DNA of 64,000 bases from Candidatus Parcubacteria bacterium (lineage in GTDB: Bacteria; Patescibacteriota; Minisyncoccia; Minisyncoccales; JAGMDC01): assembly GCA_023131895.1 (NCBI GenBank), contig JAGLYZ010000003.1, positions 1,394-65,393 of the forward strand, in the 5' to 3' direction. The translations under genes were made by a program, and so were the position numbers. Below the pieces are notes generated by a model. That model was given only the letters and a program-made list of their open reading frames with translations. It was not told the origin of the DNA and made no database searches. Positions 6,306 to 25,698 of the stretch are shown here, one piece after another (the first letter of the stretch is position 1; each line of letters begins with the position of its first letter).

Positions 6306-6392
6306 AATTTAAAATGAGAGATTGGTTATCTAACATAGTAATAAATAAAATGCGATACCAAAAACCATATTATTCTTAATATCTATAAAATC

Positions 6393-6420: not shown

Positions 6421-6447
6421 AAAAAAAACGAAGGTCGGGCCTTCGTT
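6421..6447 (-). terminator. rho-independent terminator after the 608-aa gene
   Basis: The minus strand reads CGAAGG-CCCGA-CCTTCG followed by a T10 run. Confidence 0.7.
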
Positions 6448-6489
6448 AATTTAGAAATTCAATATCTAAATAAATACTTGCATTGATTT

Positions 6490-8316: not shown

Positions 8317-8317
8317 A

Positions 8318-8893
8318 TTACTTTTCTCTGATGCTCACCCCGCCTTCGCCGACAGCTATAATCTCAAAAACGTCTTTGAGCGAAGCGCTAAAAACTAAAT
8401 TATAATAATCATCTTTTTTTTCAAAAAGAGGAGTTTGATATCCTTTATCGGTTTTCACTATAAAAGATAAAATTTCACAATCACCTTTGGTAACTACACT
8501 TGTTTTAATTTCTAACTTGCCATTCTCGTATTTTTTCTCCAAGACCTCTGTCCATCCCTTGCATCTCTCCCTTGCTTCTTTTATTTTTTCTTTATCCGGT
8601 TTTGCCTGTTCCTTAACAATTGTTTCGTTCTCTCTGTCTTTAATTAAAATCCCGTATTTATCTCCGCAGTCATAAACACTGCAAGAAAAGAACTCTACTC
8701 CCTCGCAGAGAAAATAATAAGAGCAGTTCTTATCTAAACAGGAATCTGTTAGAAGCTGACAATTTTCAAAAGGAATCGGTTTTTCAACTGGACCAGGAAC
8801 TTGCTGACCAATAAAATAAAAAACTATGAGTAATAAAATTGTAAGAGAGAAGCTAATCCATATTATTAAATTTTTTTTCTTTATTGTTGCCAT
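8318..8893 (-). CDS. membrane-anchored cysteine-rich hypothetical protein
   Basis: 191 aa with an N-terminal TM helix and 8+ Cys. Its stop lies 1 nt before the start of the 608-aa gene (coupled). Confidence 0.55.
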   Translation of the reverse strand: MATIKKKNLIIWISFSLTILLLIVFYFIGQQVPGPVEKPIPFENCQLLTDSCLDKNCSYYFLCEGVEFFSCSVYDCGDKYGILIKDRENETIVKEQAKPDKEKIKEARERCKGWTEVLEKKYENGKLEIKTSVVTKGDCEILSFIVKTDKGYQTPLFEKKDDYYNLVFSASLKDVFEIIAVGEGGVSIREK

Positions 8894-9021
8894 ATTATTA
8901 TTATAAATTATTTTATTATCTTTTTTTATTATATCAAACTATAGAAAATAAAAAAGGTAAACTGTGGATAACTCAAAAACTAAAAATTGGAATTATTATC
9001 TTAATAAGCTATAATAAAATA

Positions 9022-9588
9022 ATGAAATCAGGATTCACTTTAATAGAGCTTTTATTAGTTGTTGCTATTATCTCTATTCTAACTGCTATAGTTACAATAG
9101 ATTATAGAACAGCAGGAAAAAAATTTTCCTTAGAAAGGTCTGCTAATAAATTAGCCCAAGAAATGCGAAAAACGCAGCAAATGACTATGTCAGCTGAACA
9201 AATTGGTTTACCTGGAGCAAAATTTTATCCGGAAGGAGGATATGGAATTCGTTTTGAAGAACCAGACGCTGGATCCCCCTTGGGTCAGGCATTTATTTTC
9301 GCTGATTGCGATAATAACGATCAATTTACACCCGGAAATGACATATGCAATGGCTCATTCTCTGAAAAAATTAAAGATATAGAATTAGAAAAAGACATTA
9401 AGATAAAGTCCCTTTTTCCTGTCTCTAATCTTGATATTACTTTTAAATCACCTGGCCCTACTATTATCTTTTTTTCTGAAAAAGCTGAATCGCTAGTACC
9501 TGAAGCTACAATAACCATTTCTTTTTTAGAAAACGGCAATACCAAAACTGTAAAAATCAACAAAGCTGGTTTAATAGAAGCAGAATAA
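9022..9588 (+). CDS. prepilin-type N-terminal cleavage/methylation protein (pilin/pseudopilin)
   Basis: The internal ATG at 9022 gives MKSGFTLIELLLVVAIISIL.... The upstream 46 codons of the tracked ORF (from 8884) are Tyr/Leu-rich AT-region read-through. Confidence 0.8.
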   Translation: MKSGFTLIELLLVVAIISILTAIVTIDYRTAGKKFSLERSANKLAQEMRKTQQMTMSAEQIGLPGAKFYPEGGYGIRFEEPDAGSPLGQAFIFADCDNNDQFTPGNDICNGSFSEKIKDIELEKDIKIKSLFPVSNLDITFKSPGPTIIFFSEKAESLVPEATITISFLENGNTKTVKINKAGLIEAE

Positions 9589-9607
9589 CAAAAATATAAT
9601 TATCTTT

Positions 9608-10117
9608 ATGAAAAACAAAGGTTTTACTATATTAGAGCTTTTAGTAACTATTTTTATTATTAGCATAGGCATATTAGGAGCTTCCGCGGCTATTAACAAA
9701 ACCATGAGTTTAACATCAAATTATTCCTCTAAACTTATTGCTGTTTCTCTTGCCCAAGAAGGTATTGAAATTGTTAGAAATATAAGAGACGGCAATTTTC
9801 TTGAGCAAAGGGCTTCTCCAGCTACACCTTGGAATGATGGATTTGTTACTCCTGGAGATTATGAAGCTGACTATACAATGGCAGATGGATTAGATAATTG
9901 GACTAACAGATATTTAAAAACCAATAGCAACGGTTTTTATTTTTATAGCGATAATCCTATTTATTCAGAAACTAAGTTTAAAAGAAAAATTACTATTTCG
10001 GAAATAGCCGATATTATAGACCCAAATTCCAGAGCAATCTTAGTTGAAGTATCTTGGCTGGAAAAAGGAGATACTAAAACAATTACTGCCAAAGAATATT
10101 TATGTAACTGGGAATAG
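9608..10117 (+). CDS. prepilin-type N-terminal domain protein (minor pilin)
   Basis: MKNKGFTILELLVTIFIISIGILG... Confidence 0.8.
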   Translation: MKNKGFTILELLVTIFIISIGILGASAAINKTMSLTSNYSSKLIAVSLAQEGIEIVRNIRDGNFLEQRASPATPWNDGFVTPGDYEADYTMADGLDNWTNRYLKTNSNGFYFYSDNPIYSETKFKRKITISEIADIIDPNSRAILVEVSWLEKGDTKTITAKEYLCNWE

Positions 10118-10242
10118 CAAGTCATACTAACATACTAACATTTTAACATTCTAACAAAATTCAATATAAAATGTTTATATGCTTACATGTTAGTACGTTA
10201 ATATGTTTAAATGTTAATATGTTAAAATGCTTAAATGTTAAA
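10118..10242. repeat. TAACAT/ATGTTA heptad palindromic element, copy B (inverted relative to copy A)
   Basis: CATACTAACATACTAACATTTTAACATTCTAACAAAATTCAATATAAAATGTTTATATGCTTACATGTTAGTACGTTAATATGTTTAAATGTTAATATGTTAAAATGCTTAAATGTTAAA. It ends at the ATG of the next pilin gene. Confidence 0.7.
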
Positions 10243-10824
10243 ATGACGAAAAGGGGTTTTACTTTAATGGAAATAATGGTTTCAGTAACTGCTTCTTTTT
10301 TGATTATAGGAGCTATCATCGGACTTTTTATTTCTATAAATCAATCTCAAAAAAGAATATTATCTACTTATGAACTTGTAAACCAAACCGGCTATGCTAT
10401 AGAATATATGAGCCGTGCGTTAAGAACAGGAGAAAAAGAATCAGGACAGGGGTGTCTTGCGTCTTCAGGATTGAATTATGAAATTCCAGTTATATATCAA
10501 ATTGGAGGAAATGAAAATTTAGGAACTGGCTTGAAATTTATAAATCATTTAGAGAATAATGACTGTCAGGAATTTTTTCTTGATGGAAGTCAACTAAAAT
10601 ACAGAAAAGGTATTGGAACCGTGAACGAACAAATATTAGCTTTAACTTCTAATGATCTTCAAATTATTGATTTTAAGTTTAAACTTTCAGGAAAAGACCA
10701 TGAAGACAATATTCAGCCAAGAATAACTATGCTTTTTGTTATTCAAGCTGGTGAAGAAGGGGCAAAAATCAATATTCAGACCACAGTGTCGCAAAGAAAC
10801 ATTGATACATATCAAATATATTAA
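10243..10824 (+). CDS. prepilin-type N-terminal domain protein (minor pilin)
   Basis: The ATG at 10243 gives MTKRGFTLMEIMVSVTASFLIIGAI.... The tracked start at 10171 lies inside the heptad repeat. Confidence 0.8.
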   Translation: MTKRGFTLMEIMVSVTASFLIIGAIIGLFISINQSQKRILSTYELVNQTGYAIEYMSRALRTGEKESGQGCLASSGLNYEIPVIYQIGGNENLGTGLKFINHLENNDCQEFFLDGSQLKYRKGIGTVNEQILALTSNDLQIIDFKFKLSGKDHEDNIQPRITMLFVIQAGEEGAKINIQTTVSQRNIDTYQIY

Positions 10825-10825
10825 A

Positions 10826-11206
10826 ATGGCAATCCAAAAATCAGAAAAAGGCGTTATTTTTTATTTAGCTTTAATAATACTGACTATTTCAATGGCTATT
10901 GTTTTAGGATTGAGTCCAATTTTAATAGGACAAATTAAAACAATCCAGCAAATGGAAAATTCAATGAAAGCATTTTTTGCGGCTGATACAGGGATAGAAA
11001 TAGCTCTTTATGACAAAAGCGAACCTGAATCAAGTTATTCAGGTTCTTTAAATGGCGCAACATACGAAGTAACAGTTGTCTGCAATGAGCTTTATTTAGA
11101 CTGCCCTTTTGGAATATGGGATAGTGACTGCAACGGTCATTTCTTTTGCTATGAGTCAATTGGCAGTTACAGAGAAATTAAAAGGGCAATTGAAATTATA
11201 AGATAA
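10826..11206 (+). CDS. PilX-like pilus-associated membrane-anchored protein (hypothetical)
   Basis: The ATG at 10826 gives MAIQKSEKGVIFYLALIILTISMAIVLG.... It is the last gene of the pilin cluster and begins 2 nt after the previous stop. Confidence 0.5.
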   Translation: MAIQKSEKGVIFYLALIILTISMAIVLGLSPILIGQIKTIQQMENSMKAFFAADTGIEIALYDKSEPESSYSGSLNGATYEVTVVCNELYLDCPFGIWDSDCNGHFFCYESIGSYREIKRAIEIIR

Positions 11207-11224
11207 AAAAAACAGACAATTTTT

Positions 11225-11812
11225 TTATGCTTTTTTAAAAATCACCTGGTCAATGATGCCGTATTCCTTTGCGTCCTGGGCTGATAAATAAAAATCTCTG
11301 TCAGTATCCTTTTCAATTCTGCTCAATGGCTGGTTTGTATGTTTAGCTAAAATTTTATTTAGCTTTTCTTTTATTTTAATAATCTGTTTTGCGGTAATTT
11401 CAATTTCTACTGCCGCCCCGCTTATGCCTCCACCGGCAACCTGATGAAGTAAAATTTCAGAATTAGGCAGGGCAAATCTTTTCCCTTTAGCGCCAGCGGC
11501 TAAAAGAATAGCGCCCATTGAAGCAGCTATGCCGATGCAAACCGTGGAAATAGGCGACTTAACATACTGCATTGTATCATAAATTGCCAAGCCGGAAGTT
11601 ACTACTCCGCCAGGAGTGTTGATATAAAGCTGGATATCTTTTTTCGGCTCCTGCGAAGCCAAAAAAAGCATCTGGGCAATAACTGAATTAGCCACTGAAT
11701 CAGTAATCGGTCCTGCTAAAAAAATAATTCTCTCTTTTAATAATCTAGAATAAATATCAAATGCCCGCTCTCCATATTTAGTTTTCTCAATGACAGTTGG
11801 AATCAAATTCAT
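11225..11812 (-). CDS. clpP: ATP-dependent Clp protease proteolytic subunit
   Basis: 195 aa: ...[22 protein letters not shown]...[14 protein letters not shown]...LLHQ... Confidence 0.9.
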
Positions 11813-11827
11813 AGTATTTAAATTTTA

Positions 11828-13042
11828 CTATTTAGATTTATTAGATGTTTTTTTCTCTTTTGTCTTTTTCTCTTTTTTTTCTTCCTTGTCCGCCGTAGTC
11901 CCGCGTGGCGGGACGGGTTTTCCTTCTTCCGGGCTTCTAACATCTATTTTCCAGCCAGTTAATTTGGCTGCTAAACGGACATTTTGGCCATTTTTGCCAA
12001 TAGCTAAAGAAAGCTGATCTTCCGGCACCAAAACCAATGCCTTGTTTTTCGGCATAATCTTAACCTCTAAAACTTTGGCTGGAGACAAAGAATTCGCAAT
12101 ATATTTTTCAGGGGCATCAGAATATTCAATAATATCAATCTTTTCTCCGCCTAATTCATTAATCACTGCTGTAACCCTTGTTCCTCTTTGGCCAACCATA
12201 GCGCCAATAGGATCCATGCCTTCTGCGTCAGAACTAACAGCAATTTTTGAACGGGACCCAGCTTCTCTTGCAATTGACTTTATGAAAACCTGATCAGTTG
12301 AAATCTCTGGCACCTCCAACTCAAAAAGTTTTGAAACCATTTTGGGATAAGCCCTGGACAAAATAATCTGCGGTCCTTTAGGCGTGAGCTCCACATTTAA
12401 AACATAAAGCCGAAACCTCTGGTTAAGACGGTAAAATTCCCCTAAAATCTGCTCCTCTCTTGGCAAAATGCCAACTGTCTTGCCAATATCAAAGAAAACT
12501 GCTCTTTGCTCAATTCTCTGGACTAATCCAGAAATTATTTCTCCTATTTTTGATTCAAACTCCTGAAGAATTGACTCTCTTTCTACTTCTTTAATCTTTT
12601 GTAAAATTACCTGCTTGGCTGTCTGCGCCGCAATTCGGCCATAATCATCCTGTGTTTCTAAAGATAGCTCTAATTCATCCCCAACTTTTATCTTCGGCTC
12701 TATCTTTTTCGCTTCTTCAAATATAATATGCTTTTCTGGATTAAAACGGATTTTTTCCTCCTTGTCCGCCGAAGCTTCAGCAGAGGCGGATTCCTTTAAC
12801 TCCTCCAGTTCATCTTCAGAATAAATCATATCCTCTGAAACAACCATCTTTATCTGCCAAAATTTTACACTCCCTGTTTTTGGAGAAAGCTTAGCTTTAA
12901 TAATCTGCCCTTTTTTACCATAATCCTTTTTATAGGCAGCAGCCAATGCCTGCTCAATAACCTCAATCACTTTTTCTTGAGGGATGCCTTTTTCTTCAGC
13001 AATCTGTGTTACAGCTGATGTAAATGATTTAATTTCAAACAT
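11828..13042 (-). CDS. nusA: transcription termination/antitermination factor NusA
   Basis: 404 aa with N-terminal, S1 and two KH regions (...GMDPIGAMVGQRGTRV...AIGKNGQNVRLAAKLTGWKIDV...) and a Lys/Glu tail. Confidence 0.9.
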   Translation of the reverse strand: MFEIKSFTSAVTQIAEEKGIPQEKVIEVIEQALAAAYKKDYGKKGQIIKAKLSPKTGSVKFWQIKMVVSEDMIYSEDELEELKESASAEASADKEEKIRFNPEKHIIFEEAKKIEPKIKVGDELELSLETQDDYGRIAAQTAKQVILQKIKEVERESILQEFESKIGEIISGLVQRIEQRAVFFDIGKTVGILPREEQILGEFYRLNQRFRLYVLNVELTPKGPQIILSRAYPKMVSKLFELEVPEISTDQVFIKSIAREAGSRSKIAVSSDAEGMDPIGAMVGQRGTRVTAVINELGGEKIDIIEYSDAPEKYIANSLSPAKVLEVKIMPKNKALVLVPEDQLSLAIGKNGQNVRLAAKLTGWKIDVRSPEEGKPVPPRGTTADKEEKKEKKTKEKKTSNKSK

Positions 13043-13120
13043 AAAAAATTTTTAGAAAAGTCCGTTGAAAAGAACGGACTGTTTTTATAATAGCAAATCT
13101 AATAACTTTGTCAACTATTT

Positions 13121-13474
13121 GGTGGTGTTTGTTGGACGAAATCCGAACTTTCTTTGAGCAAAATCCAGAGGATTTTGCGGATTGAATCCCGCCCAGCGTT
13201 TCCGCCCGCCTTTGCTTCGCTACGGCGAGCAAAACAGAAAAATTTTCTAAACATTTTTTAATCGCCTGCCCCAAATTTTTTTCAATTAAGGAAAAGAAAA
13301 TTTTTCTGTTTTGATATTCTACTAACGCAGAATTGCGGAAACGCTTTCCCACCCCATAGTCCCGCTTTGCGGGACTGGCAAGCTGGCAAAAATTCATTTT
13401 CCCTACACCCCTTTTTCTTTTTGCCCGCCTGTTCTTTGACTCTGTCCTGAAAATTTTTTTGGCTGGCGTCGGGG
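13121..13474. repeat. structured ~350-bp repeat, copy X1 (body 13121-13377, 41-bp palindromic core 13385-13425, tail to 13474)
   Basis: The body is about 80% identical to the reverse complement of 21064-21314. 13378-13474 is 100% identical to the reverse complement of 14865-14961. Confidence 0.85.
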
Positions 13475-13501
13475 ATATATTAAGAGAGAGCAAACATAAG
13501 G

Positions 13502-13993
13502 TTACAAACCCAGCCGTTCAATCATATCTTTTTTCAGATTTATTGCAAAATTTCTCGCATCTTCTAAATCTTTTTTATTAGGTCTGCCTTTGTTTAGTCC
13601 ACCAGTAAATTTCAAAAATGGAATGTATCTATCAAAAAGATATGTATCAAACCCTCTACAAGAAAACTTCCCTACAATATCAAACCCCTTTTCTAACAAT
13701 TTTTTAAAAAGTGGCCGATGATAAAACCATACAGGACCTATACCTCTTGTTGAAAAAATAAATGCCTTTTTGTTTTTCATTATAGGTAGATTATCAACAA
13801 GAGCAAGTAATGCTTTATGCTGTTTAAAAAAATAAATTCCTGAGCCAAACCCAATGAGGTCGTATTTGGAAAGAGTATTCACCTCAATCTTATTGGGTCT
13901 CAATAATTCTGCATTAAAGATTTTAGCCATTTCTTTAGCAATTTTTTCTGTATTACCATTATGTATTGATATGTAAATAATTAGAGTTTTCAT
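13502..13993 (-). CDS. flavodoxin-like fold protein
   Basis: 163 aa: MKTLIIYISIHNGNTEKIAKEMA...IGFGSGIYFFK... Confidence 0.6.
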   Translation of the reverse strand: MKTLIIYISIHNGNTEKIAKEMAKIFNAELLRPNKIEVNTLSKYDLIGFGSGIYFFKQHKALLALVDNLPIMKNKKAFIFSTRGIGPVWFYHRPLFKKLLEKGFDIVGKFSCRGFDTYLFDRYIPFLKFTGGLNKGRPNKKDLEDARNFAINLKKDMIERLGL

Positions 13994-14451
13994 ATTAACA
14001 TTTCTAGATTTTTAAACTCCTCTTTTGCGTGTTTTTCAAGCGCCTCTTCAAATGCTTTTGTAAGATAAAATTTTTTCAAAAGCAAATCGATTATTTTACC
14101 GAATAATCCTTTGTATCCAACCTCTATTTTATGAATTACTTTCGCGCCTGTGTTCGTAGATTCGAAAGCTAACGAAAAATAACCAGAAATAAGCGATTTC
14201 CATTTATAAAGCAAAAATCTATTTGGTTCAACCTTTACAAGTTTTCCAGTAAGTTTTAATCTGAAGTGGTTAAATTGTTCATCTAAATAGACAATACTTC
14301 CCATTTCATTGGGTGTTCGTTTAATAGTCTTCCATGCTTTATGGGCGGGGTGCCACTTCTTATATTTCTCATCATCCAAATCGAGAATCCAGTTATATAT
14401 CTGTTCTGGAGTTTTGCCTTTTATCTCAATTTTCGTAATTATAATAATCAT
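13990..14451 (-). CDS. SRPBCC/START-like hypothetical protein
   Basis: 153 aa. Composition and length fit the SRPBCC fold. ATGA overlap with the flavodoxin-like gene. Confidence 0.4.
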   Translation of the reverse strand: MIIIITKIEIKGKTPEQIYNWILDLDDEKYKKWHPAHKAWKTIKRTPNEMGSIVYLDEQFNHFRLKLTGKLVKVEPNRFLLYKWKSLISGYFSLAFESTNTGAKVIHKIEVGYKGLFGKIIDLLLKKFYLTKAFEEALEKHAKEEFKNLEMLI

Positions 14452-14520
14452 ATTATCTCTCCCTCATAAGTTTATAGATTTTTTTATTTATTAGATTTTT
14501 CTAAAGCGAGGTTAGGAATT

Positions 14521-14733
14521 TCATTTTATTAAATCGCCAATATCAACCTTTAATGCTTTAGCGATTTTCGTTAAAGTTTCAATAGTGGGATTTGGATTTT
14601 CACCAGATTCAATTTTTACAATAGTATTATAAGCGACATCAGCAAACTTAGAAAGCTTATCTTGAGAAATCTCAAGTTTCTTTCTATAATGCTTGATATT
14701 TTTCGCTATTGTGGATAATCTTCTTGTTGACAT
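14521..14733 (-). CDS. XRE-family helix-turn-helix transcriptional regulator
   Basis: 70 aa: ...IKHYRKKLEISQDKLSKFADVAYNTIVKIESGENPNPTIETLTKIAKALKV... Confidence 0.85.
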   Translation of the reverse strand: MSTRRLSTIAKNIKHYRKKLEISQDKLSKFADVAYNTIVKIESGENPNPTIETLTKIAKALKVDIGDLIK

Positions 14734-14864
14734 TTGACTAATAATTTAATACTATTATAGTAGATGTTAGATATTAGATATAGTATATTTTTTCTCATTA
14801 ACTAATATAATGATACTAAATTATTTTAGTAATGTAAAGCAGCAAATTTATCTTTTTCGATTTG

Positions 14865-14999
14865 CCCCGACGCCAGCCAAAAAAATTTTCAGGACAGAGT
14901 CAAAGAACAGGCGGGCAAAAAGAAAAAGGGGTGTAGGGAAAATGAATTTTTGCCAGCTTGCTTATTCACTCTCTGATTTAGAATTTTATTGCTCCTGAT
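14865..14999. repeat. partial repeat copy X3 (tail + core 14914-14954 + 38-bp S1 arm 14962-14999)
   Basis: 14865-14961 is the exact reverse complement of 13378-13474. 14962-14999 matches the reverse complement of 20977-21014 at 35/38. Confidence 0.85.
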
Positions 15000-15005
15000 T
15001 TTTCT

Positions 15006-15087
15006 CTATAACGAATCGAGGATAAAAGAAATTCTGCGAGGCAGAATTTGGACGGAGCAAAGCGGAGTCTTTTATCCTCTGTTATCG
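15006..15087 (-). other. attC-like folded palindrome 4
   Basis: The minus strand reads CGATAAC-A-GAGGATAAAAGA-(38 nt)-TCTTTTATCCTC-GATTC-GTTATAG. Confidence 0.55.
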
Positions 15088-15170
15088 GAGTCTTGGCAAG
15101 CTGAGACCGAGCCACGAAGTGGCGAAGAGTTGCGGGGCTTTAATTTTTGTCATTAAAAGTTTTTTTCTCT

Positions 15171-16298
15171 TCACTCAGTTGTAGGATATAAAAGTCTTTC
15201 CCCTGATGCGACTCTCTTTACTAAATCTAAATTAACAAGTCTACAAAGGTCTTCTACTTTAGATTTAGCTGAATAGAAACCTAATGGATGATTTTCCATT
15301 GGAGGTATCCAAGAATCCTTATAGATAGTAACCCTAAGTTGTTCTATTTCTTGAATTTCATCATTATTGAGTTCATGATCAAAATATAAGAAAAGTTTCA
15401 TTTCGTCTGTGATATTTTTTTGCATGGCTTGCATTACAACTAGACTTTCAAATTTTTTGCTGTCTCTAATATCTTCTAGGTCACATTCAATTATAGATGG
15501 TTTTGCCTTGCATCCACATTGTTTACTGTTTTCCTCTGTAATTAAATCTGAATTTGAAATCCATGGACAGGGTTCTGATTCGTTTTTGGCTATTGCTTTA
15601 CAATACTCTTCACAGTTAATTTCTCTTTTTACCGTGCATTTGTTATCAACGCAAATAGGTGTGAATTTCTCTAAATTTAGGCAGTGAGAACATTGTGGTG
15701 GTGAGTAATAAGGGCAAGTTGGCGGGCACTTTGCTTTCATCTCCTGTTCGATTTTTTCTTTACTCTCTTTATTCACAACATTTGGTGATTCTCTTTTACA
15801 TGGGTCTGGAGGTGGACAACATCTAATAAAATCCAAAAATACACAATCTGAATCTTTTTCACAATATTTTTCATTATCTATGACTTTTGTCTTTTGGCTA
15901 CAACAATCAAAATAACATGTCCAGTCATATCCAAAAACAAAATTGCCTGATTTCCTTTCTTTTACAGAAGAAGCTTTAATAAATTTACAATCGCGATCAA
16001 TAAGATTAATATTTTTATATCTTTGCCATTCATCATACCAAACAGAGTCTTTTCCAATCTCCTTAGAGCACATCACTTGGATAAAATCCTTTAATCTATT
16101 TTCACACAATCTTTTTTGTTCTTCTGCGTTGGCTGGAGGACCTGCCTCATCGCCGGCACCCATTTCAAAGTAAATATTACTACAATCTACCTTTACCTGT
16201 TGAGTTGGTTGACTGCTCCAAAGCCACAATCCACCAACTACAACAATTCCAATTACTAAACAAACTATTCCAATTTTAATTTTCTTTTCCATAGTCAT
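15171..16298 (-). CDS. membrane-anchored cysteine-rich hypothetical protein (cassette ORF)
   Basis: 375 aa with about 30 Cys. N-terminal anchor ...VVVGGLWLWSSQPTQQV. Confidence 0.55.
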   Translation of the reverse strand: MTMEKKIKIGIVCLVIGIVVVGGLWLWSSQPTQQVKVDCSNIYFEMGAGDEAGPPANAEEQKRLCENRLKDFIQVMCSKEIGKDSVWYDEWQRYKNINLIDRDCKFIKASSVKERKSGNFVFGYDWTCYFDCCSQKTKVIDNEKYCEKDSDCVFLDFIRCCPPPDPCKRESPNVVNKESKEKIEQEMKAKCPPTCPYYSPPQCSHCLNLEKFTPICVDNKCTVKREINCEEYCKAIAKNESEPCPWISNSDLITEENSKQCGCKAKPSIIECDLEDIRDSKKFESLVVMQAMQKNITDEMKLFLYFDHELNNDEIQEIEQLRVTIYKDSWIPPMENHPLGFYSAKSKVEDLCRLVNLDLVKRVASGERLLYPTTE

Positions 16299-16348
16299 AA
16301 TTTAATTGTATTAAAGTTAATAAATATTTTCAAAAGCCTCGCCATTTC

Positions 16349-16426
16349 CGATAACGTATCCCAGATATACGAAGTCCCGAAGGGATTTGAGCGTAACGAA
16401 GTGAAGCCGTATATCTGGTGTTAGAT
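16349..16426 (-). other. attC-like folded palindrome 3
   Basis: The minus strand reads ATCTAAC-A-CCAGATATACG-(36 nt)-CGTATATCTGG-GATAC-GTTATCG. The TAA inside ATCTAAC is the stop codon of the upstream ORF. Confidence 0.55.
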
Positions 16427-17173
16427 GTTGTAAATTTTTAGGGATTTTGCGAATCTTCTCTCCCTGTACAACAACATACCGGCATAGATAACGCTTACAT
16501 TTAAAACAATTTGGGAAACTATTTCTATAAAAATTATCAATGGATTAAATCCAAAGAATATGACATAGTCAATCGTTCCATCTAATAAACCATATACTGG
16601 TGGTACCAAAAGAAATGTCTCAAGCCACATATAGATAAACGGTATCATAGCAATGCTAAATAATGTTGCTCGTCCTAACCAGTTGTTTTTTATATCAAAA
16701 TGTAATGCTAACAATATGTTCAGCAGCATAAAAATAACGGGTATCCGAATTGAAGTTAATATAAAAACGAATTCTTCTAATCCCATCAGGTCCCCTAAAA
16801 TATATGAGCCAAACCACAGTGTAAAGGCGGGGAATAATCCGGGATGCTCTAATGCCATTTCAGGTGTCAATGAAGATGTACTTAAAGCGTCTATAGCCCC
16901 CCATGATGTTAAAATCACAAAAAACCAGATTGGAACCCCAATCAGACCACGATATAAGTCCCACTTATACAATTTTTTAAGATTACCTTCTGGTGGTTTA
17001 CTCATTAACATACTGATAAACAGAATTGTAAAGCCAGCAACAATAAATACCATTCCTAATGCGCCAATACCCGCTTGATCTTCTGTAATTTGCGGCTTTG
17101 ACATTGTATCCAAAACCATGAATATACCAATAATTCCTAAAATCAAACCAATTGCAAATATGATTTTTTTCAT
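16421..17173 (-). CDS. polytopic membrane protein (hypothetical, cassette ORF)
   Basis: 250 aa with about 7 hydrophobic helices. Confidence 0.55.
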   Translation of the reverse strand: MKKIIFAIGLILGIIGIFMVLDTMSKPQITEDQAGIGALGMVFIVAGFTILFISMLMSKPPEGNLKKLYKWDLYRGLIGVPIWFFVILTSWGAIDALSTSSLTPEMALEHPGLFPAFTLWFGSYILGDLMGLEEFVFILTSIRIPVIFMLLNILLALHFDIKNNWLGRATLFSIAMIPFIYMWLETFLLVPPVYGLLDGTIDYVIFFGFNPLIIFIEIVSQIVLNVSVIYAGMLLYRERRFAKSLKIYNI

Positions 17174-17244
17174 AATTAATCCTATTGAAAATCTTTATTA
17201 ATAAAACTTTTCCCGAGCAAAATCCCGTTAAGAAAATTTATTGC

Positions 17245-17345
17245 ATCTAACATCTGGGATATACGAAGTTTTTCTGGAACGAAGTGGAAGAAAAATTTGG
17301 GTGAGGGGCGAGCCGAGCCCCGAACCGTATATCCTCTTGTTGTAC
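17245..17345 (-). other. attC-like folded palindrome 2
   Basis: The minus strand reads GTACAAC-AAG-AGGATATACG-(60 nt)-CGTATATCCC-AGAT-GTTAGAT. Confidence 0.5.
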
Positions 17346-17522
17346 GCCCCGACGACTGAAGGGAGGAGAGCGCAGCGTGGCTTGAGTTCAAAAAATATTT
17401 TTCGTTCTTATCCATCAAATAGGCTTTCGTTTATTTCTTATAAATTTGATTTTTTCCTATTTTAAAAATGGAAGAGGGGTTAGGGGTGAATTTCATTTTT
17501 TATGGTCAACCATATCATTATA

Positions 17523-18344
17523 TTATTGATGTTTATCAAGATTAACAACTTCAAACTTTGGATAATGAACTACAAATTGCGGAACACTAACATTTGAGTC
17601 CAATAATATTTTTTTTGTCTTATCAATAAATTCATTAAACTGCGTTTCATCCACCAGTATTTGATAATTTCTCAGGTAGTTTTCTCTAAGTATCTTTTTA
17701 AATTCTCCACCAGCGGCTTTTAAATTCATCATTTCAACAATGTAGTAATCTGCAAAATTTTTTGTTTTTGAAATCAATAATTTGATATTGATTAATTCAG
17801 GAATTACTGGGGATATAAAACAAAAAGTTTTAATCCTATTATTTTTTAGAGTTTTCAACGCCTTTATTCTTTCTTCATTACTGGGAGAATGCGGTTCAAA
17901 TAAATCTTTTGTATTTCCTTCAAAAGTATTAATTGTCAAACCGACTTCTATTTTTTTGAATTGTTTTAATAAATCAATGTCCCTTGTTATTAAATCTGAT
18001 TTTGTTAATATTGAAAGTTCTGTGCGTTTGTCCATGCTTTGCAAAATACGGCGTGTCAACTGCAATTCTTTTTCTGCTGGCTGATAAGGGTCGGAGACAG
18101 AAGACATAATGACTTTTCCATTAACAATTTTTTTTGCGAGTTCAGGAGCATTGATTTTCGCTTCTACCCAATCACCCCATTTCCCGTGATTTTTCCACCG
18201 GCACATAAATTTTGCGTAGCAATAAGTACAAGCATATTCACAGCCAATATATTGGTTTATTACATACTTTGCACTAGGAGTTTTCGTTTTTGTAAATATA
18301 CTCTTTGCATTAATTTTAATTATTTTGGCAGTCATAGTAATCAC
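17523..18344 (-). CDS. radical SAM protein, SplB/DNA-photolyase-like (COG1533-type)
   Basis: 273 aa with a CxxxCxxC cluster motif GCEYACTYCYAKF near the N-terminus. Confidence 0.7.
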   Translation of the reverse strand: MITMTAKIIKINAKSIFTKTKTPSAKYVINQYIGCEYACTYCYAKFMCRWKNHGKWGDWVEAKINAPELAKKIVNGKVIMSSVSDPYQPAEKELQLTRRILQSMDKRTELSILTKSDLITRDIDLLKQFKKIEVGLTINTFEGNTKDLFEPHSPSNEERIKALKTLKNNRIKTFCFISPVIPELINIKLLISKTKNFADYYIVEMMNLKAAGGEFKKILRENYLRNYQILVDETQFNEFIDKTKKILLDSNVSVPQFVVHYPKFEVVNLDKHQ

Positions 18345-18850
18345 TTAGAAGCACTTGCCTTACAGAGAGATCTCATTTTGCATTGAGAGCATCCTTTCTT
18401 TCTTCCGAATTGGTTTATTATCATAATCACAATAAAACCCAATAGAGAGATTCCACCAGAAATTAAAAATTCTCTATTCAAAAATATAGCAATTGGAATA
18501 ACAATAATTGGAATGAGTGTTAATAATCCCCAAGTCATGCCTGCTAATTTCATTCCGAGTTTGTAATCTCCTGATTTTTGTTTAAACTGGCATGAACTTA
18601 ATTTGCTCCAGCCACTTCCGCATAATTTACCATAATAATAGCAATGTGTGCAAAGATGTTTTCTTAGGACAATTCCCAACATTACTAATGCAAATGACAA
18701 ATAGAGTATGGAAATAATAGGGAATCCTGCAAATTTAAATGCCGACATTCCGTACGCCGCTAATCCAAACCATAATAACAACAGCGTGTTGGTTAAAATT
18801 ACTGATGATTTTGGATAATTCTCCAATCCTTTTTCGTATAGTTTTTCCAT
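18341..18850 (-). CDS. membrane protein with CxxC motifs (hypothetical)
   Basis: 169 aa with 4 TM segments, plus CTHCYYYGKLCGSGW and GCSQCKMRSLC. It overlaps the radical SAM start by 4 nt. Confidence 0.5.
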   Translation of the reverse strand: MEKLYEKGLENYPKSSVILTNTLLLLWFGLAAYGMSAFKFAGFPIISILYLSFALVMLGIVLRKHLCTHCYYYGKLCGSGWSKLSSCQFKQKSGDYKLGMKLAGMTWGLLTLIPIIVIPIAIFLNREFLISGGISLLGFIVIMIINQFGRKKGCSQCKMRSLCKASASK

Positions 18851-18852
18851 AA

Positions 18853-19182
18853 TTACTTTTCTCCAAAGCGACCAATAAAATAACCCATCAAACTTCCGAT
18901 AATAAGATTTGTAACCAGCATTGGAACTAGTTCTTGGGGACTGCCAGCAACTACTACAATCATCATTGGAAAGGCTATTAAAAAGAAAATTAGCGTTCCT
19001 TTTAAAGTATTATTCAATTTTAGGTTTGATGTTGATATGAGAAAACCGCCGATAACACACATCAAAAATGCTGATACTAATGTGTCCCAAGTCATTTTCA
19101 TAAGCATCATAGGGATTATATCAACTATACCAAAAATAATACCAATGATAAGTCCTACTTTTGTTTTGCTCATTTTTTCCAT
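18853..19182 (-). CDS. small membrane protein (hypothetical)
   Basis: 109 aa with 3-4 TM segments. Its stop lies 2 nt before the next start. Confidence 0.5.
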   Translation of the reverse strand: MEKMSKTKVGLIIGIIFGIVDIIPMMLMKMTWDTLVSAFLMCVIGGFLISTSNLKLNNTLKGTLIFFLIAFPMMIVVVAGSPQELVPMLVTNLIIGSLMGYFIGRFGEK

Positions 19183-19381
19183 AATCTTTACCTCTTTATT
19201 AAATATAAATATCGTTATTATATAAGTTTTGTTTTTCTTTTCAATTTATAAGTTGTTTTCGTAACGGAGTGGAGAAAACACAAATTATCCCCCTCTTTTG
19301 TTTCAGAAAAAATCAAATTTATTTCCCTTTTTAGAAAGCCCGTCATTCTTTTGTCTTTTAGAAAAATATTTTTTGAATTGC

Positions 19382-19472
19382 GTATAACATATAGTGCTAA
19401 AAGAAGTTGTTGCGTAGCAACAATTTGGATGGAACGACCGCAGGGAGTGAAATCTTTTAGCACTTGTTAAGT
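19382..19472 (-). other. attC-like folded palindrome 1
   Basis: The minus strand reads ACTTAAC-A-AGTGCTAAAAG-(50 nt)-CTTTTAGCACT-ATAT-GTTATAC. The plus strand ends in GTTAAGT (fits GTTRRRY). Confidence 0.55.
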
Positions 19473-19501
19473 GAAGTATGACGCAGCCGCCGAGTTAAAA
19501 T

Positions 19502-19945
19502 CTATTTCATCTTCTCGAGTTCCATTATGTTGTTAGGAGGTGTGGTAGCTTCATGAACTGTTATTTTACCTGTGAAGTCCACAAATACGTATCTGCATGG
19601 GTGTGCCCAGTTGGCCCATGGAGCGTCATCAACGAAGAAGAACCAACCCTCCTTCTGTGGGAGTTCAATTGAACTGTGCCAACTTTCTATGGTTGTGCCA
19701 GCTTTCACTGGTTTGGGACCTACATATACCCATTTCCCTTCGGTACTTCCATTCAAAAGCTCTGATATGACCAGATTGTAAGCATCCGTCTTGGATATGT
19801 TTTTATCTGCTTCAAATTCTTTCCATTCCTCAACTTGATCTAGTTGTTGACTATTCCAAATCCACAATCCTCCAACTAAAACAATTACCATAATCAAAAT
19901 TCCAATAAAGATTTTTGTTTTTGAATTCATAATAGTTTTCCTCAT
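19502..19945 (-). CDS. membrane-anchored/exported hypothetical protein (first cassette ORF)
   Basis: 147 aa. The N-terminal anchor ...VLVGGLWIWNSQQLDQV is shared with the 375-aa ORF. Confidence 0.55.
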   Translation of the reverse strand: MRKTIMNSKTKIFIGILIMVIVLVGGLWIWNSQQLDQVEEWKEFEADKNISKTDAYNLVISELLNGSTEGKWVYVGPKPVKAGTTIESWHSSIELPQKEGWFFFVDDAPWANWAHPCRYVFVDFTGKITVHEATTPPNNIMELEKMK

Positions 19946-20010
19946 AATTTTATTGTTAGACTTATTTATTAATCTTATGAGTTTATATGCTCGGCGGCGA
20001 GTAATATTTC

Positions 20011-20086
20011 ATTTAACTCGTTTCTATACGAATTGAATGTATAATATCGACCTTTTGTTGCATATTATACGAACTTAATGTATAAT
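20011..20086. promoter_or_regulatory. attI-like region: GTTAAAT core plus two 21-bp direct repeats
   Basis: Minus-strand GTTAAAT at 20017-20011. TATACGAATTGAATGTATAAT (20025-20045) and TATACGAACTTAATGTATAAT (20066-20086) match 18/21, and each has inverted TATAC/GTATA ends. Confidence 0.45.
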
Positions 20087-20146
20087 TATTAATGAAATTA
20101 CTAATAATTACTTAACTAACTTTAGTTTACTAATTTTTATAAAATT

Positions 20147-20962
20147 ATGCAACAAAAATATTTGGAACAAACAAGGCGGGAATTAAAATTAAGAAATTAT
20201 AGTTTCAAAACCATAAAGGCCTATCTCGGTTGTTTAAAAGAATATTTTGATTTTAAAAAATTTAATTTAGAAAAAATAGACGAGGAAAATATAAAGCAGT
20301 TTTTATTAAATAAACAAGACAAAAATTATTCTTCACAAACGATAAATCTTTACTTAAATGCAATAAAATTTTTTTACCGCGAAGTATTGAAAATTCCCGA
20401 AAAGATAAATTTGAAATTCGCCAAGCGAAGTAAAAAACTACCGATTGTTCTATCAAGAGAAGAAATTGAAAACATCATTGAGTCAATCAAAAATCCAAAG
20501 CATAAATTAATAATCTCTTTAGCTTATGGCGCCGGCTTGAGAATCAGTGAAGTTATTAGTCTAAAAGTAAAAGATGTCGATTTAGAAGAATTAACTATCC
20601 ATCTTAAAAACGCCAAAGGCAAAAAGGACAGAATCACTATTTTCCCGGAAAAAATTAGAAGAGATATTCAAGGTTTAATAGCCAGAAAAAATTCGGACGA
20701 TTATCTTTTTGAAAGCGAACGGGGCGGAAAATTAACCGAGCGGACAGCCCAAAAAGTTTTTGAAAACGCACTCCGAGGAACGGGTATAAAAAAAGACGCT
20801 ACATTCCATTCGTTAAGACACAGCTTTGCAACACATTTATTAGAAAATGGTGTTGATGTCAGGTATGTGCAGGAACTTTTAGGGCATCAGAATATCAGAA
20901 CAACTCAAATTTATACTCAGGTAACAAATCCAAAACTCAAAAACATTAAAAGTCCGTTATGA
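20147..20962 (+). CDS. tyrosine site-specific recombinase (IntI/Xer-like, lacks the IntI-specific insertion)
   Basis: 271 aa: ...YSFKTIKAYLGCLKEYF..., KKLPIVLSREEI, LAYGAGLRISEVISLKVKDVDL, KGKKDR, HSLRHSFATHLLENGVDVRYVQELLGHQNIRTTQIYTQV...IKSPL. The R..K..HxxR..H..Y catalytic pattern is present. Confidence 0.9.
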   Translation: MQQKYLEQTRRELKLRNYSFKTIKAYLGCLKEYFDFKKFNLEKIDEENIKQFLLNKQDKNYSSQTINLYLNAIKFFYREVLKIPEKINLKFAKRSKKLPIVLSREEIENIIESIKNPKHKLIISLAYGAGLRISEVISLKVKDVDLEELTIHLKNAKGKKDRITIFPEKIRRDIQGLIARKNSDDYLFESERGGKLTERTAQKVFENALRGTGIKKDATFHSLRHSFATHLLENGVDVRYVQELLGHQNIRTTQIYTQVTNPKLKNIKSPL

Positions 20963-20976
20963 TTAAAACGGGAAAA

Positions 20977-21314
20977 ATCAGAAGCAATAAAACTCTAAAT
21001 CAGAAAGTGAATAAGCTTAGTAAGCAAAAAGAAAAAGGGATGTGGGGGAAATGAATTTTTGCCCGCCTGCTGTCCCTCAAAACGGGACTGGGGTTGGGAG
21101 CGTTTCCGCAATTCTGCGTTAGCAGAATATCAAAACAGAAAAATTTTCTTTTCCTTAATTGAAAAAAATTTTGCGAGGGGCTATTAAAAAAATGTAGAGA
21201 AAATTTTTCTGTTTTGCTCGCCGTCAGGCGAGTGAAAACGCTGGGTCGGGGTTCAAAAATCCGCTTGCGGATTTTTCTCAAAATGAGTTCGGATTTCGTC
21301 CAGCAAACACCACC
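20977..21314. repeat. structured repeat copy X2 (S1 arm 20977-21014, core 21023-21063, inverted body 21064-21314)
   Basis: Reverse-complement match to the X1 body. The S1 arm and core are shared with X3. Confidence 0.85.
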
Positions 21315-21398
21315 ACTTCGCTTTTTGTAATTATAGATTAATGTTTATTATGCTCGTGTTTGCACCACGTAGCTCCGAGGCGTAACCGAGGAGCGAAG

Positions 21399-21472
21399 TG
21401 GTGGACCCAGCGAGAGTCGAACTCGCGACATCGCAATGCCATTGCGATATTTTACCACTAAACTATGGGCCC
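21399..21472 (-). tRNA. tRNA-Ala (anticodon GGC), CCA encoded
   Basis: Acceptor GGGCCCA/TGGGTCC with the G3:U70 identity pair, anticodon arm TCGCA-ATGGCAT-TGCGA, T loop TTCGACT, then ACCA. Confidence 0.85.
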
Positions 21473-23912: not shown

Positions 23913-25169
23913 TTATTTTATTATCTCTTTTAATTTTTCTAATAACTCTTTTTCTTTTACTTTAATTTGTTCTCCGGTTTTCATATTTCTAAGAGTTATT
24001 TGATTTTTTATTGCTTCTTCCGGACCAATAATTATGACAAAAGGAATTTCTTTTTTATTCGCATATCTTAGTTGTTTTTCCAAACTGGTTTCAAAATCAA
24101 GATAAATTTCATTATTAATATTTTCGGAACGCAATGCTTGAGAAATTTTTATACACTGGTCTAAAAAAGATTTATCAATTATGGTAATTAAAATTTTAGT
24201 GTTTGTTGAAGAAATTTCAGGCCAAAGATTTAATTCTTGTATAGCATCAACTATTCTGTCAATTCCTATTGTTGTGCCGCACGCAGGAATGTCTTTTTCC
24301 GCGAACATTCCGATTAGTTTATCATATCTTCCGCCGCCGGCAATTGAACCAATTTTTGGCTTTTCAACAACTGCTTCATAAATAGGTCCTGTATAATAAT
24401 CCAGTCCTCTTGCTAAAAATGGATCAAATTTGAGAAAATTTTCTGGCACGCTTAATTTTTTTACAAGTAATAATACCTGTTGAAGAAACAAATCCGGTTT
24501 TGCTTTTTTAATAAGCTGAAAAATTTTTTCAGCTGTTTGCGTTTCAATATTTTTTTCTATCAATTCTTGTTTAACTTGCTCAAAAGAAATTTTGTCTAAT
24601 TTATCAATAGATTGTATGGCTGAAAGAATTTTGTCTTGAGATACACCAGCGTTTTTCATAATAGAAAATAGAATTTGGCGGCTATTAATGCGGATTATAA
24701 ATTTTTCAAAACCAATTTTTCGCAGAACCGTATAAATAATTGCGATAATTTCAGCATCAGCCAAAGATGATTTACTGCCAATAGTGTCAATATCACATTG
24801 AGTAAATTCTCTATAACGGCCCTTTTTTGGTTTGTCTGCTCTCCAAACCGGCTGGATTTGGTAGCGTTTAAATGGTTTTGGAATATTGAGATACTGGGCA
24901 ACAAATCGCGACAAAGGAACAGTAAGGTCATACCGTAAAGCTACATCGCGACTGCCTTGATCTTTGAAACGATAAACTAATTTATTTGCTTCACTTCCTA
25001 ATTTACTTAGTAATATCTCAGAGTATTCCAAGCTTGGTGTTTCAATCGGGACAAAGCCATAAGATTCAAAAACATTTTTTACAATATCAAAAACCTTTTG
25101 GCGAATAATCATTTGTTCAGGTGAAAAATCACGAAATCCTTTTAAAATTTTTGGTTCAATTTTTTCCAT
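23913..25169 (-). CDS. hisS: histidine--tRNA ligase
   Basis: 418 aa: ...KGFRDFSPEQM...YRFKDQGSRDVALRYDLTVPLSRF...YQIQPVWRADKPKKGRYREFTQCD...GGGRYD... Confidence 0.9.
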   Translation of the reverse strand: MEKIEPKILKGFRDFSPEQMIIRQKVFDIVKNVFESYGFVPIETPSLEYSEILLSKLGSEANKLVYRFKDQGSRDVALRYDLTVPLSRFVAQYLNIPKPFKRYQIQPVWRADKPKKGRYREFTQCDIDTIGSKSSLADAEIIAIIYTVLRKIGFEKFIIRINSRQILFSIMKNAGVSQDKILSAIQSIDKLDKISFEQVKQELIEKNIETQTAEKIFQLIKKAKPDLFLQQVLLLVKKLSVPENFLKFDPFLARGLDYYTGPIYEAVVEKPKIGSIAGGGRYDKLIGMFAEKDIPACGTTIGIDRIVDAIQELNLWPEISSTNTKILITIIDKSFLDQCIKISQALRSENINNEIYLDFETSLEKQLRYANKKEIPFVIIIGPEEAIKNQITLRNMKTGEQIKVKEKELLEKLKEIIK

Positions 25170-25176
25170 ATTTTTG

Positions 25177-25251
25177 GGTGGACGACGGGGAACGATCCCG
25201 CATCCCTAGCTCCACAAGCTAGTACTCTAAACCAATTGAGCTACATCCACC
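25177..25251 (-). tRNA. tRNA-His (anticodon GTG) with G-1; atypical T loop
   Basis: G-1 + GTGGATG/CGTCCAC + C73, anticodon arm CTAGC-TTGTGGA-GCTAG, T arm GCGGG-ATCGTTC-CCCGT (A54/T58 instead of T54/A58). Confidence 0.7.
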
Positions 25252-25261: not shown

Positions 25262-25575
25262 AAACTCCCGTTCCTCTTACAAGATAAGAAAAATCATTAT
25301 AGATTTTTCCCAGAGGAACGAGAGTTTTAATATAAAATTCCCGCGGTCCCATCCTCGTTTCCTAACACCTTAAAAGGTAGCAGGACACTTGATTAAGTTA
25401 ACGATGAGTGACACCGTCTCAGCTTGTATCTTCTTAGGATTTTCTTGCCGAGCTGCTCCAGAGGCGTGTTTAGAAATTTTTTAGCGCTTGGCTTTCACTA
25501 CCCCAAGCTCGCTTTAGCTTATATTATATTTCTTACTATTCCTCTGTACAAACGCATTTCGTATTTAATTTTAAT
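25262..25575 (-). ncRNA. T-box riboswitch leader, His specifier (CAC)
   Basis: Stem I: CAGAGG/CCUCUG base, specifier loop AAUAGUA / AAA-CAC-G, distal GCUUGG-GGUAGUGAAAG-CCAAGC. Antiterminator: GAGGA-UGGGACC-GCGGGA..UCUCGU-UCCUC. Terminator: AAAACUCUCGUUCCUCU..AGAGGAACGGGAGUUUUUU. Confidence 0.85.
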
Positions 25576-25614: not shown

Positions 25615-25625
25615 GTTTTTTTGTG

Positions 25626-25698
25626 GGCGAACGAGGAGATTCGAACTCCCCCTTAGATCTCCACAGGATCTAGTGCTAACCACTACACTACGTTCGCC
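25626..25698 (-). tRNA. tRNA-His (anticodon GTG), canonical
   Basis: G-1 + GCGAACG/CGTTCGC + C73, anticodon arm AGATC-CTGTGGA-GATCT, T arm GGGAG-TTCGAAT-CTCCT. Confidence 0.8.

Follow-up and report, generated by a model that had tools for sequence, protein, structure and literature searches.

A structured hairpin module at the ends of tRNA-associated islands in CPR bacteria, and accretion with collapse as a possible origin of a direct repeat pair around an integron-like unit

What brings two copies of a palindromic sequence into the same orientation on either side of a recombinase gene and its cassettes? The question is raised by contig JAGLYZ010000003.1 of a Candidatus Parcubacteria bacterium (assembly GCA_023131895.1), of which positions 1,394 to 65,393 were analysed (64,000 nucleotides, hereafter the window). 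Within it, a 6-kb segment carries a tyrosine recombinase gene with an array of cassettes and lies between two direct copies of a palindromic core. A preliminary description of the locus took the pattern as that expected if a circle had integrated by way of the cores, or if the cores recombine as in a shufflon. Comparison with related loci of the candidate phyla radiation (CPR), designated below by L numbers, points to a different answer. The cores belong almost certainly to a structured module that ends islands at tRNA genes, and the direct pair may have arisen by accretion of one island on another followed by collapse, a reading to which we assign a probability of roughly 0.45 and which we prefer over circle integration.

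The core measures 40 nt and occurs at 13385-13424 (minus strand), 14915-14954 (plus strand) and 21024-21063 (plus strand), termed copies A, B and C, in each case with 0 mismatches to the degenerate 40-mer GCAAAAAGAAAAAGGGRTGTRGGGRAAATGAATTTTTGCC (0.00 expected from 100 shuffles). A looser pattern, GCAAAAA-N18-32-TTTTTGC, matches the identical three sites (0.05 expected). All three cores previously described are therefore present well beyond chance, one base away from the coordinates first given. The direct cores of B and C agree at 37 of 40 positions, and their hairpins differ at three loop positions and in both stem halves. Immediately inside them lies an inverted repeat, S1/S1' (14960-15004 and 20972-21016; 93% complementary), which had been noticed at a length of 38 bp and proved to be 45 nt long. 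The flanks are mosaic, as had been stated, yet on a larger scale: copies A and B are perfect inverted repeats of each other over 97 nt (13378-13474 and 14865-14961), an identity that stops precisely at the start of S1, and copies A and C share a "body" of about 250 nt (13120-13377 on the minus strand and 21071-21315 on the plus strand; 83-95% identity). Copies B (tail and hairpin) and C (hairpin and body) resemble two halves of one module, as the preliminary description implied. Independent assemblies of sibling samples, with 99.6-100% identity, cross both junctions of the 6-kb segment: tail-core-S1 in L021/L024, L022 and L025, and S1'-core-body in L002 and L003. Given this reproduction, the arrangement is real and no assembly artefact. 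The only difference of L002 from the window at 19532-19754 is a run of N.

Is the core a private attachment site of the recombinase encoded between its direct copies? Its distribution speaks against this part of the earlier reading. The exact core is found in 143 copies at 123 loci of many CPR genomes (17 stretches of species-representative genomes, mostly metagenome-assembled genomes of Patescibacteria, and 105 metagenome contigs), and homologues of the tyrosine recombinase are encoded at just 2 of the 122 other core-bearing loci. The viral contigs of IMG/VR contain no core (0 matches), and a phage origin was rejected. Most copies are preceded by a tail of about 45 nt and followed by a body of about 250 nt. 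Searching for the whole module with an nhmmer profile, in place of a covariance model, yielded 88 full-length modules across loci, the two of the window included; copy A and these 88 modules are uninterrupted. An alignment of 45 non-redundant modules gave a consensus structure of 8 helices and 56 pairs, with 97.5% of cells paired. Compensatory changes were seen in 28 pairs, compared with 12.3 in shuffled alignments (0 of 500 reached 28) and at most 10 in slid controls, and in one subgroup two entire helices are swapped for complementary alternatives. Invariant G-U pairs set the structured strand as tail, core, body. The core forms the tip of helix 2, which consists of a 14-bp stem with covariation in its outer 7 bp and of a 25-nt loop that is invariant. 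The core is thus almost certainly the apical hairpin of a widespread structured module of about 310-350 nt.

Several known identities for this module were considered and rejected. It has no match in Rfam 15 at gathering thresholds and merely chance-level matches at E <= 5, so that a known RNA family is not indicated. A tmRNA or tRNA-like gene, an idea prompted by the ...ACCACCA end, was detected by neither ARAGORN nor Rfam. An open reading frame (ORF) starting from the ATG of the loop is opposed by the compensatory substitutions and by the ATG-less variant loop of L132. Both that locus (10866-11028 and 7778-7939) and L135 (10867-11019) have a short body after a variant hairpin whose loop deviates (TTGGAAGGGTTCAAGGGGAGGAAA), which makes the core family wider than the exact 40-mer that was searched. 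The neighbourhood of the module is recurrent. Of 120 copies, 42 have a divergent helix-turn-helix (HTH) gene of the XRE type on the tail side, at a distance of 184-246 nt, and a large serine recombinase (LSR) gene lies co-directionally on the body side in 20 of 66 copies, 282-563 nt downstream. These two associations predominate over that with the tyrosine recombinase. Furthermore, the module end co-varies with the type of the neighbouring tRNA: CCACCA for Ala and Val, CTGCCA for Trp and GCTCCA for Gly (CCCGCTCCA). Given this covariation, an att half-site fits better than a tRNA-like function. Our best guess is that the module serves as a structured 5' leader of the LSR transcript which also bears an att half-site; a protein-binding hairpin and a single-stranded DNA structure are other candidates.

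The modules usually occur as inverted pairs, 2-8 kb apart with their bodies outward, around restriction-modification and other defence genes. Inverted tail-hairpin-body modules mark both ends in L012, L018, L026, L027, L032, L049, L056, L061, L098, L100, L103 and L130. In complete members, the LSR gene is located between a module and a convergent tRNA gene (L012, L019, L027, L034, L043, L049, L117 and L132); the module finishes with 6-10 nt identical to the tRNA 3' end, and at least 70 further nt are the same on either side of the LSR gene. In L012, the end of tRNA-Val and the far module end carry CCACCA as direct repeats, the pattern that integration of an element at a tRNA 3' end would leave. 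The enzyme is a generic large serine recombinase with weak scores to its closest families (XisF, 120 bits against a cutoff of 375). LSR-less collapsed derivatives are common (L009, L013, L047, L097 and L135). In L013 (7074-7128) and L047 (6084-6144), the modules are cut off after a small GC hairpin and joined to inverted LSR-flank sequence near the tRNA; these deletions end in the short repeat GCYTTCGGCGG and show a route by which the LSR segment is lost. A further member, L059, has a period of 8,026 nt over positions 1-12034 (1-3955 equals 8027-11981, 100%), as a circular or tandem 8-kb element, and carries genes for a C-protein HTH, two methyltransferases, a DpnII-like endonuclease, a KAP NTPase and an LSR. 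Because this complete element encodes neither a Rep protein nor a relaxase, a rolling-circle or oriT-type nick site in the loop was rejected.

The region 13120-21398 of the window is probably a composite island of the same family, module-ended, located at tRNA-Ala and carrying an integron-like unit as cargo. Its features are listed below in window coordinates.

13120-13377, minus strand: body of module A; the nhmmer profile matches with positions 2-310 at 13431-13117, and synteny with L010 breaks at 13121
13127-13120, minus strand: end of the module A body, a tRNA-like 3' end (...AACACCACCA); left boundary of the island
13378-13474, minus strand: apical hairpin of module A (core 13385-13424) with a 50-nt tail; one arm of the perfect 97-nt inverted repeat
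13502-14733, minus strand: cargo unit 1, an HTH three-gene unit (three ORFs)
13502-13993, minus strand: flavodoxin-like gene of cargo unit 1
13990-14451, minus strand: SRPBCC/polyketide-cyclase-like gene of cargo unit 1
14521-14733, minus strand: XRE HTH gene of cargo unit 1
14865-14961, plus strand: copy B, tail and complete hairpin (core 14915-14954; stem halves CAGGCGG and AGCTTGC) with no body after; profile positions 2-63 only
14960-15004, plus strand: S1, left arm of the 45-nt inverted repeat, directly adjoining the R'' box of the array's last attC-like site
15003-19479, minus strand: cassette array, six ORFs in four blocks
15003-15098, 16346-16433, 17242-17345 and 19379-19479: attC-like sites of the cassette array
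15171-16298, 16421-17173, 17523-18344 (radical SAM), 18341-18850, 18853-19182 and 19502-19945: cassette-array ORFs
19946-20146: attI-like region with two 21-nt direct repeats; L010 conservation begins near 20010
20147-20962, plus strand: XerA-like tyrosine recombinase of 271 aa, an "integron integrase" without the IntI-specific insert
20972-21016, plus strand: S1', right arm of the 45-nt inverted repeat
21017-21070, plus strand: hairpin of copy C (core 21024-21063); stem halves TTAGTAA and CGCCTGC, non-complementary
21071-21315, plus strand: body of module C, ending ...AACACCACCA at 21308-21315; profile positions 4-310 at 21019-21318
21316-21398, no strand: 83-nt spacer, where related islands (L034, L117, L097 and L132 compared) hold the LSR gene
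21310-21322 and 21392-21404: 13-nt inverted repeat CCACCACTTCGCT
21399-21472, minus strand: tRNA-Ala(GGC), convergent with module C; the island is presumed to have integrated here

The outer modules are inverted with their bodies outward, A at 13431-13117 on the minus strand and C at 21019-21318 on the plus strand. Between them lie two cargo units, the HTH three-gene unit and the 6-kb integron-like unit, with the extra hairpin B separating the two. Module C ends in ...CACCACCA followed by CTTCGCT (21308-21322), and tRNA-Ala ends in ...TCCACCA followed by CTTCGCT (21392-21406), so that the tRNA 3' end has been copied. On the minus strand the order reads tRNA-Ala, 83 nt, inverted module C, S1, intI, attI, cassettes and S1', then hairpin B and tail', the HTH, SRPBCC and flavodoxin-like genes, and module A (tail, hairpin, body) with its ...CACCACCA end before the NusA promoter. 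Synteny with L010 breaks exactly at the left boundary, which supports the reading of 13120-21398 as one island. No LSR homologue is encoded in the 64-kb window, and just 83 nt separate 21315 from 21399. The interval that separates the HTH gene from copy B contains an imperfect inverted repeat of 47 nt and divergent sigma-70-like promoters (14717-14848), a candidate operator for the HTH protein; one such promoter, predicted at 14727-14761 on the plus strand, is directed into copy B.

The 6-kb segment itself works like an integron, judging from its sequence, although its recombinase is no canonical IntI, and recombination of its cassettes is predicted. The recombinase passes the NCBIfam model NF040815 (XerA/"integron integrase") with 241.7 against a cutoff of 220, and fails to reach the canonical IntI models TIGR02249 (226.3 against 265, in two stretches) and PRK15417 (144 against 435). 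The additional domain specific to IntI is absent from the protein; the catalytic motifs GLRISE, HSLRHSFATH, LLGH and IYT are readable. The cassette ORFs are divergent from the recombinase gene, and their blocks are separated by imperfect palindromes of 85-105 nt that fold attC-like, with TAAC/GTTA boxes, a bulged spacer, L stems and a common architecture in the alignment. All four sites fold as attC on both strands (z from -1.8 to -4.5). A covariance model trained on these four sites and one site of L010 finds, at E <= 1, just these four in the window, in line with the earlier claim that the element holds them all. It also recovers 10 non-training sites at 7 other loci, beside homologous recombinases, and this attC family was seen solely in such company. 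Two 21-nt direct repeats (TATACGAAYTKAATGTATAAT; 20025-20045 and 20066-20086), 41 nt apart in the attI-like region and kept in L010, are candidate binding sites of the recombinase. A 76-nt direct repeat (16208-16283 and 19846-19921; 72% identity) falls on the hydrophobic segments at the N-termini of two cassette proteins (375 and 147 aa) and suggests that these carry related secretion or membrane anchors.

Comparison with L010, which is syntenic and has a 93% identical recombinase, revealed that intI and about 140 nt upstream of it (attI) are conserved (89%), as are the distal attC and S1; the cassettes are unrelated. Homologues with 75-93% identity fall into more than 120 protein clusters, and the matches with a named source are from Patescibacteria/CPR. 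Their genomic contexts vary. Such conservation lies far above the expectation for vertical genes and suggests that the platform may be spreading horizontally. The view of the 6-kb segment as a discrete unit also stands, in that an integron-like platform bounded by S1 repeats abutting a hairpin exists in five other genomes.

How is this unit placed in its relatives? L010 is syntenic on both sides, lacks the segment corresponding to window 13120-14907 and holds the integron between inverted S1'-hairpin units. The array-distal ends of L004, L016 and L080 show attC, S1' and hairpin, all in canonical orientation, and in L004 this end, rather than intI, faces tRNA-Ala. The islands L132-134 (recombinase 87% identical) consist of an inverted short module on the minus strand, attC, cassettes, intI, a variant hairpin, a short body ending in CACCACCA, an LSR gene and tRNA-Val; in L135, intI is followed by a short module abutting tRNA-Ala. 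Direct orientation is thus not typical of the unit: the same integron lies between inverted hairpins in L010 and L132 and at the array ends of L004, L016 and L080, and the window has the sole direct core pair among 130 loci. S1 is confined to the integron sub-lineage of the window. It is the inner part of the long terminal inverted repeat of the island, the counterpart of the tail in HTH islands, and no transposon end. The opposite view, an S1-bounded transposon analogous to Tn402-type mobile integrons that targets hairpins and duplicates a whole hairpin as its target site, would account for terminal inverted repeats of 45 nt and for the precise meeting of S1 and S1' with the hairpin at its 3' and 5' bases. 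However, the unit encodes no transposase or tni-like gene, its hairpin copies differ at three loop positions and in both stem halves, and the flanking hairpins of L010 are inverted, which excludes a target-site duplication. We regard this view as highly improbable, and it is largely refuted by L010.

Since relatives such as L010, L132 and L004 hold the same integron between inverted hairpins, the direct arrangement of B and C is derived. In the mechanism we prefer, an LSR would integrate a circular form at the 3' end of a tRNA gene, and each integrated island would remake a tRNA-like end at its distal module, where more islands could accrete. An HTH-type island may have accreted in this way at the tRNA-like end of the distal module of a resident integron island. 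The resulting near-palindrome of module, LSR gene and inverted module would then have collapsed through deletion at the hairpin bases, leaving a single fused hairpin B, the HTH island's own, joined to S1 and direct relative to C. The island's own LSR gene beside tRNA-Ala would have been lost likewise, with 83 nt remaining. This sequence of events draws only on features seen in the island family and explains both the end of the A/B identity exactly at the S1 boundary, hairpin B being that of the HTH island, and the loss of both LSR genes. It also agrees with L139, which is syntenic at tRNA-Ala/tRNA-Arg/HtrA, has no S1' and contains about 7 kb between intI and the same tRNA-Ala (4485-11473), with an LSR C-terminal fragment, a module 3' remnant and a different restriction-modification system with HTH. 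In L139, the tRNA-Ala locus appears to have accreted islands in another order than in the window. The direct cores of the window would accordingly be a by-product of accretion and collapse, and they could still permit excision through any recombination between them.

Some points weigh against accretion and collapse. The intermediate, with module, LSR gene and inverted module between two cargo units, was found in no relative. The LSR-mediated steps are deduced from the anatomy of other loci, the window having no LSR homologue, and the module may act either as RNA or as single-stranded DNA. Moreover, the stem halves of C are non-complementary and the left half of B is fully complementary to the right half of C, which a single reciprocal exchange would explain more directly.

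Such an exchange is the core of the earlier reading, in which a circular integron unit (S1'-hairpin-S1) would have integrated reciprocally into the hairpin of a resident tail-hairpin-body module, making B and C its attL and attR. The encoded XerA-like enzyme or another recombinase would catalyse the reaction, and the unit could re-excise. One event would predict both B and C exactly. Joined together, CAGGCGG from the left of B and CCGCCTG from the right of C form the canonical 14-bp stem (-15.8 kcal/mol; z = -4.1). The hairpins of A and B reach -8.3 kcal/mol, and C is without a canonical hairpin. CAGGCGG/CCGCCTG is nevertheless a common stem variant, and the complementarity could plausibly be due to chance. 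Those stem halves that lie next to S1 or S1' match variants near S1' elsewhere (CAAGCTG compared with CAAGCGG in L080/L016; TTAGTAA compared with TTAGTAG in L010), and uninterrupted, paralogous modules are plentiful. The model predicts a circle junction ...GTGAATAAGCTTAGTAAGCAAAAAG...TTTTTGCCAGCTTGCTTATTCACTC... (GTGAATAAGCTTAGTAAGCAAAAAGAAAAAGGGATGT/AGGGAAAATGAATTTTTGCCAGCTTGCTTATTCACTC) and a restored site ...AGAACAGGCGGGCAAAAAG...TTTTTGCCCGCCTGCTGTCCCTC (AGAACAGGCGGGCAAAAAGAAAAAGGGGTGT/GGGGGAAATGAATTTTTGCCCGCCTGCTGTCCCTC). However, neither a circle junction, an orthologous empty site nor an inverted isoform was found in any assembly, and the S1'-hairpin-S1 junction is seen in none of about 140 loci. 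The integron is already present at this locus in the syntenic L010, where the HTH island is missing; the integron therefore seems resident and the HTH unit the newcomer. Every other integron end has inverted hairpins. The hairpin itself contains neither GTT/AAC boxes nor Xer-type arms, and hairpin-bounded cargo mosaics occur also in islands that encode no tyrosine recombinase. Finally, the right stem half of A equals that of B, and a crossover inside the core would need an extra gene conversion. Of the attL/attR claim, the discrete unit and the likeness of B and C to halves of one module stand; a recombinase-specific core does not, and integration of a circle appears somewhat unlikely.

A flip of cargo was weighed as well. 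In a shufflon-like system, hairpins or entire inverted modules of 350-450 nt would recombine repeatedly, with an LSR acting in trans or homologous recombination flipping and swapping cargo, and the present order would be one isoform. The perfect 97-nt inverted repeat on either side of the 1.39-kb HTH unit, the LSR gene of L059 between 448-nt perfect inverted repeats, and the LSR gene of L014 beside a 1.65-kb segment between inverted hairpins would suit such a system. Moreover, the HTH cargo end lies beside the LSR-proximal module in L027, L059, L061, L070, L100 and L105 and beside the distal one in L012 and L049, and the integron of L004 is inverted relative to tRNA-Ala when compared with the window. 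The L014 arrangement (3118-6768), with inverted repeats of 121 nt that contain the hairpin and no body, looks like a classical invertible segment. Yet all four independent assemblies of the strain show a single orientation, and the contig pairs that differ by inversion (L052/L059 and L028/L129) are explicable by assembly ambiguity, the identical repeats being longer than the reads. The ends of contig L023 coincide with the repeat boundaries, an effect that may simply come from repeat collapse. Inversion alone cannot produce a direct B/C pair, and the apparent att site of the LSR is the tRNA-like module end rather than the hairpin. We thus consider repeated flipping distinctly unlikely as the origin of the pair.

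Whichever event took place, the base of the hairpin recurs as a breakpoint. In L012, L027 and the window, the identity between partner modules stops 6-10 nt past the core on its 3' side. Some pairs of loci combine identical bodies with tails that are unrelated, others identical tails with unrelated bodies, and their breakpoints are 3-9 nt away from the core. Flank mosaics broken 6-10 nt from the core are seen in L012, in L027 and in the pairs L061/L083 and L028/L035, and speak for circle integration. The hairpin base is on this evidence a recombination-prone joint under either accretion and collapse or integration of a circle. A bolder proposal makes the invariant hairpin a dedicated recombination joint of the serine-recombinase islands. 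Cargo units, each equipped with an inverted adaptor (the tail, S1, or X in L132), would join, trade places or leave through hairpin-to-hairpin exchange, and the surrounding module of ~350 nt would function together with the recombinase, as structured RNA or as single-stranded DNA. This is unlikely in our estimation; if true, it would constitute a second-order cassette system in which an entire integron acts as one cassette.

The integron-like unit shares with sedentary chromosomal integrons a tyrosine recombinase gene divergent from an array of promoterless cassettes, imperfect palindromes of 85-105 nt between the cassettes with ...AAC/GTT... boxes, a bulged spacer and L stems, conserved intI/attI next to cassettes that vary between relatives, and an attC family tied to homologous recombinases. 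Unlike them, it has a recombinase of 271 aa with an XerA-type score and no IntI-specific insert, its cassette recombination is a prediction, and the platform is the cargo of a tRNA-targeting island between hairpin modules in a CPR host. The Tn402/Tn5053-type carriers of class 1 integrons likewise place the platform between short terminal inverted repeats (IRi/IRt), past intI and past the last cassette. The window unit differs from them in the lack of transposition (tni) genes and in its 45-nt repeats, which run outward into a 54-nt hairpin and a structured body of about 250 nt; in its relatives, the repeat belongs to the long inverted terminal module of the island.

Elements with serine integrases, and tandem accretion at tRNA genes, are represented by the phiC31/A118-type large serine integrases, Ccr of staphylococcal cassette chromosome (SCC) elements and accretion of the ICESt1/ICESt3 type. 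The present islands resemble these in the position of the LSR gene at the element edge by the attachment site, in an att half-site that copies the target end and in successive elements at one locus. They differ from them in targeting the extreme 3' end of tRNA genes, in an LSR gene placed between inverted repeats of 70 to 448 nt, in a conserved structured module with an invariant 25-nt loop at both ends, and in weak LSR family scores. In the yeast 2-micron-type architecture, two long inverted repeats divide a circle that encodes a recombinase. The circular 8,026-bp L059, in which two perfect 448-nt inverted modules flank the LSR gene and split the recombinase segment from the cargo segment, is reminiscent of that plan; it has a serine and not a tyrosine recombinase, no recognisable replication gene, and flipping is hypothetical.

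Outside the island, a T-box leader (25311-25561, minus strand) is located upstream of the gene for histidyl-tRNA synthetase (23913-25169, minus strand), with copies of tRNA-His(GTG) at 25176-25250 and 25625-25697 on either side of the leader.

In summary, integrons, tRNA-targeting islands and serine integrases are all known already. We found no description in the literature of the module, of CPR integrons with this recombinase or of LSR islands at tRNA genes in Patescibacteria. Four features appear to be new, none of them described in the literature searched: a structured module with an invariant hairpin at the island ends, the LSR gene between inverted repeats at the extreme tRNA 3' end, the integron-like platform with a short XerA-type recombinase as cargo of module-ended islands in CPR bacteria, and the hairpin as a recurrent breakpoint. 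With many copies at contig ends, the module accounts for frequent contig breaks in CPR assemblies. It covaries strongly over ~350 nt and is absent from Rfam, and its role is now testable as leader RNA, protein-binding hairpin or recombination joint. The large serine recombinases apparently target the extreme 3' end of tRNA genes, with an att half-site readable from the module end, and enzymes of this kind are sought as tools for genome integration. The carriage of an integron-like platform for gene capture by a larger mobile vehicle suggests a way in which such platforms spread among CPR genomes.

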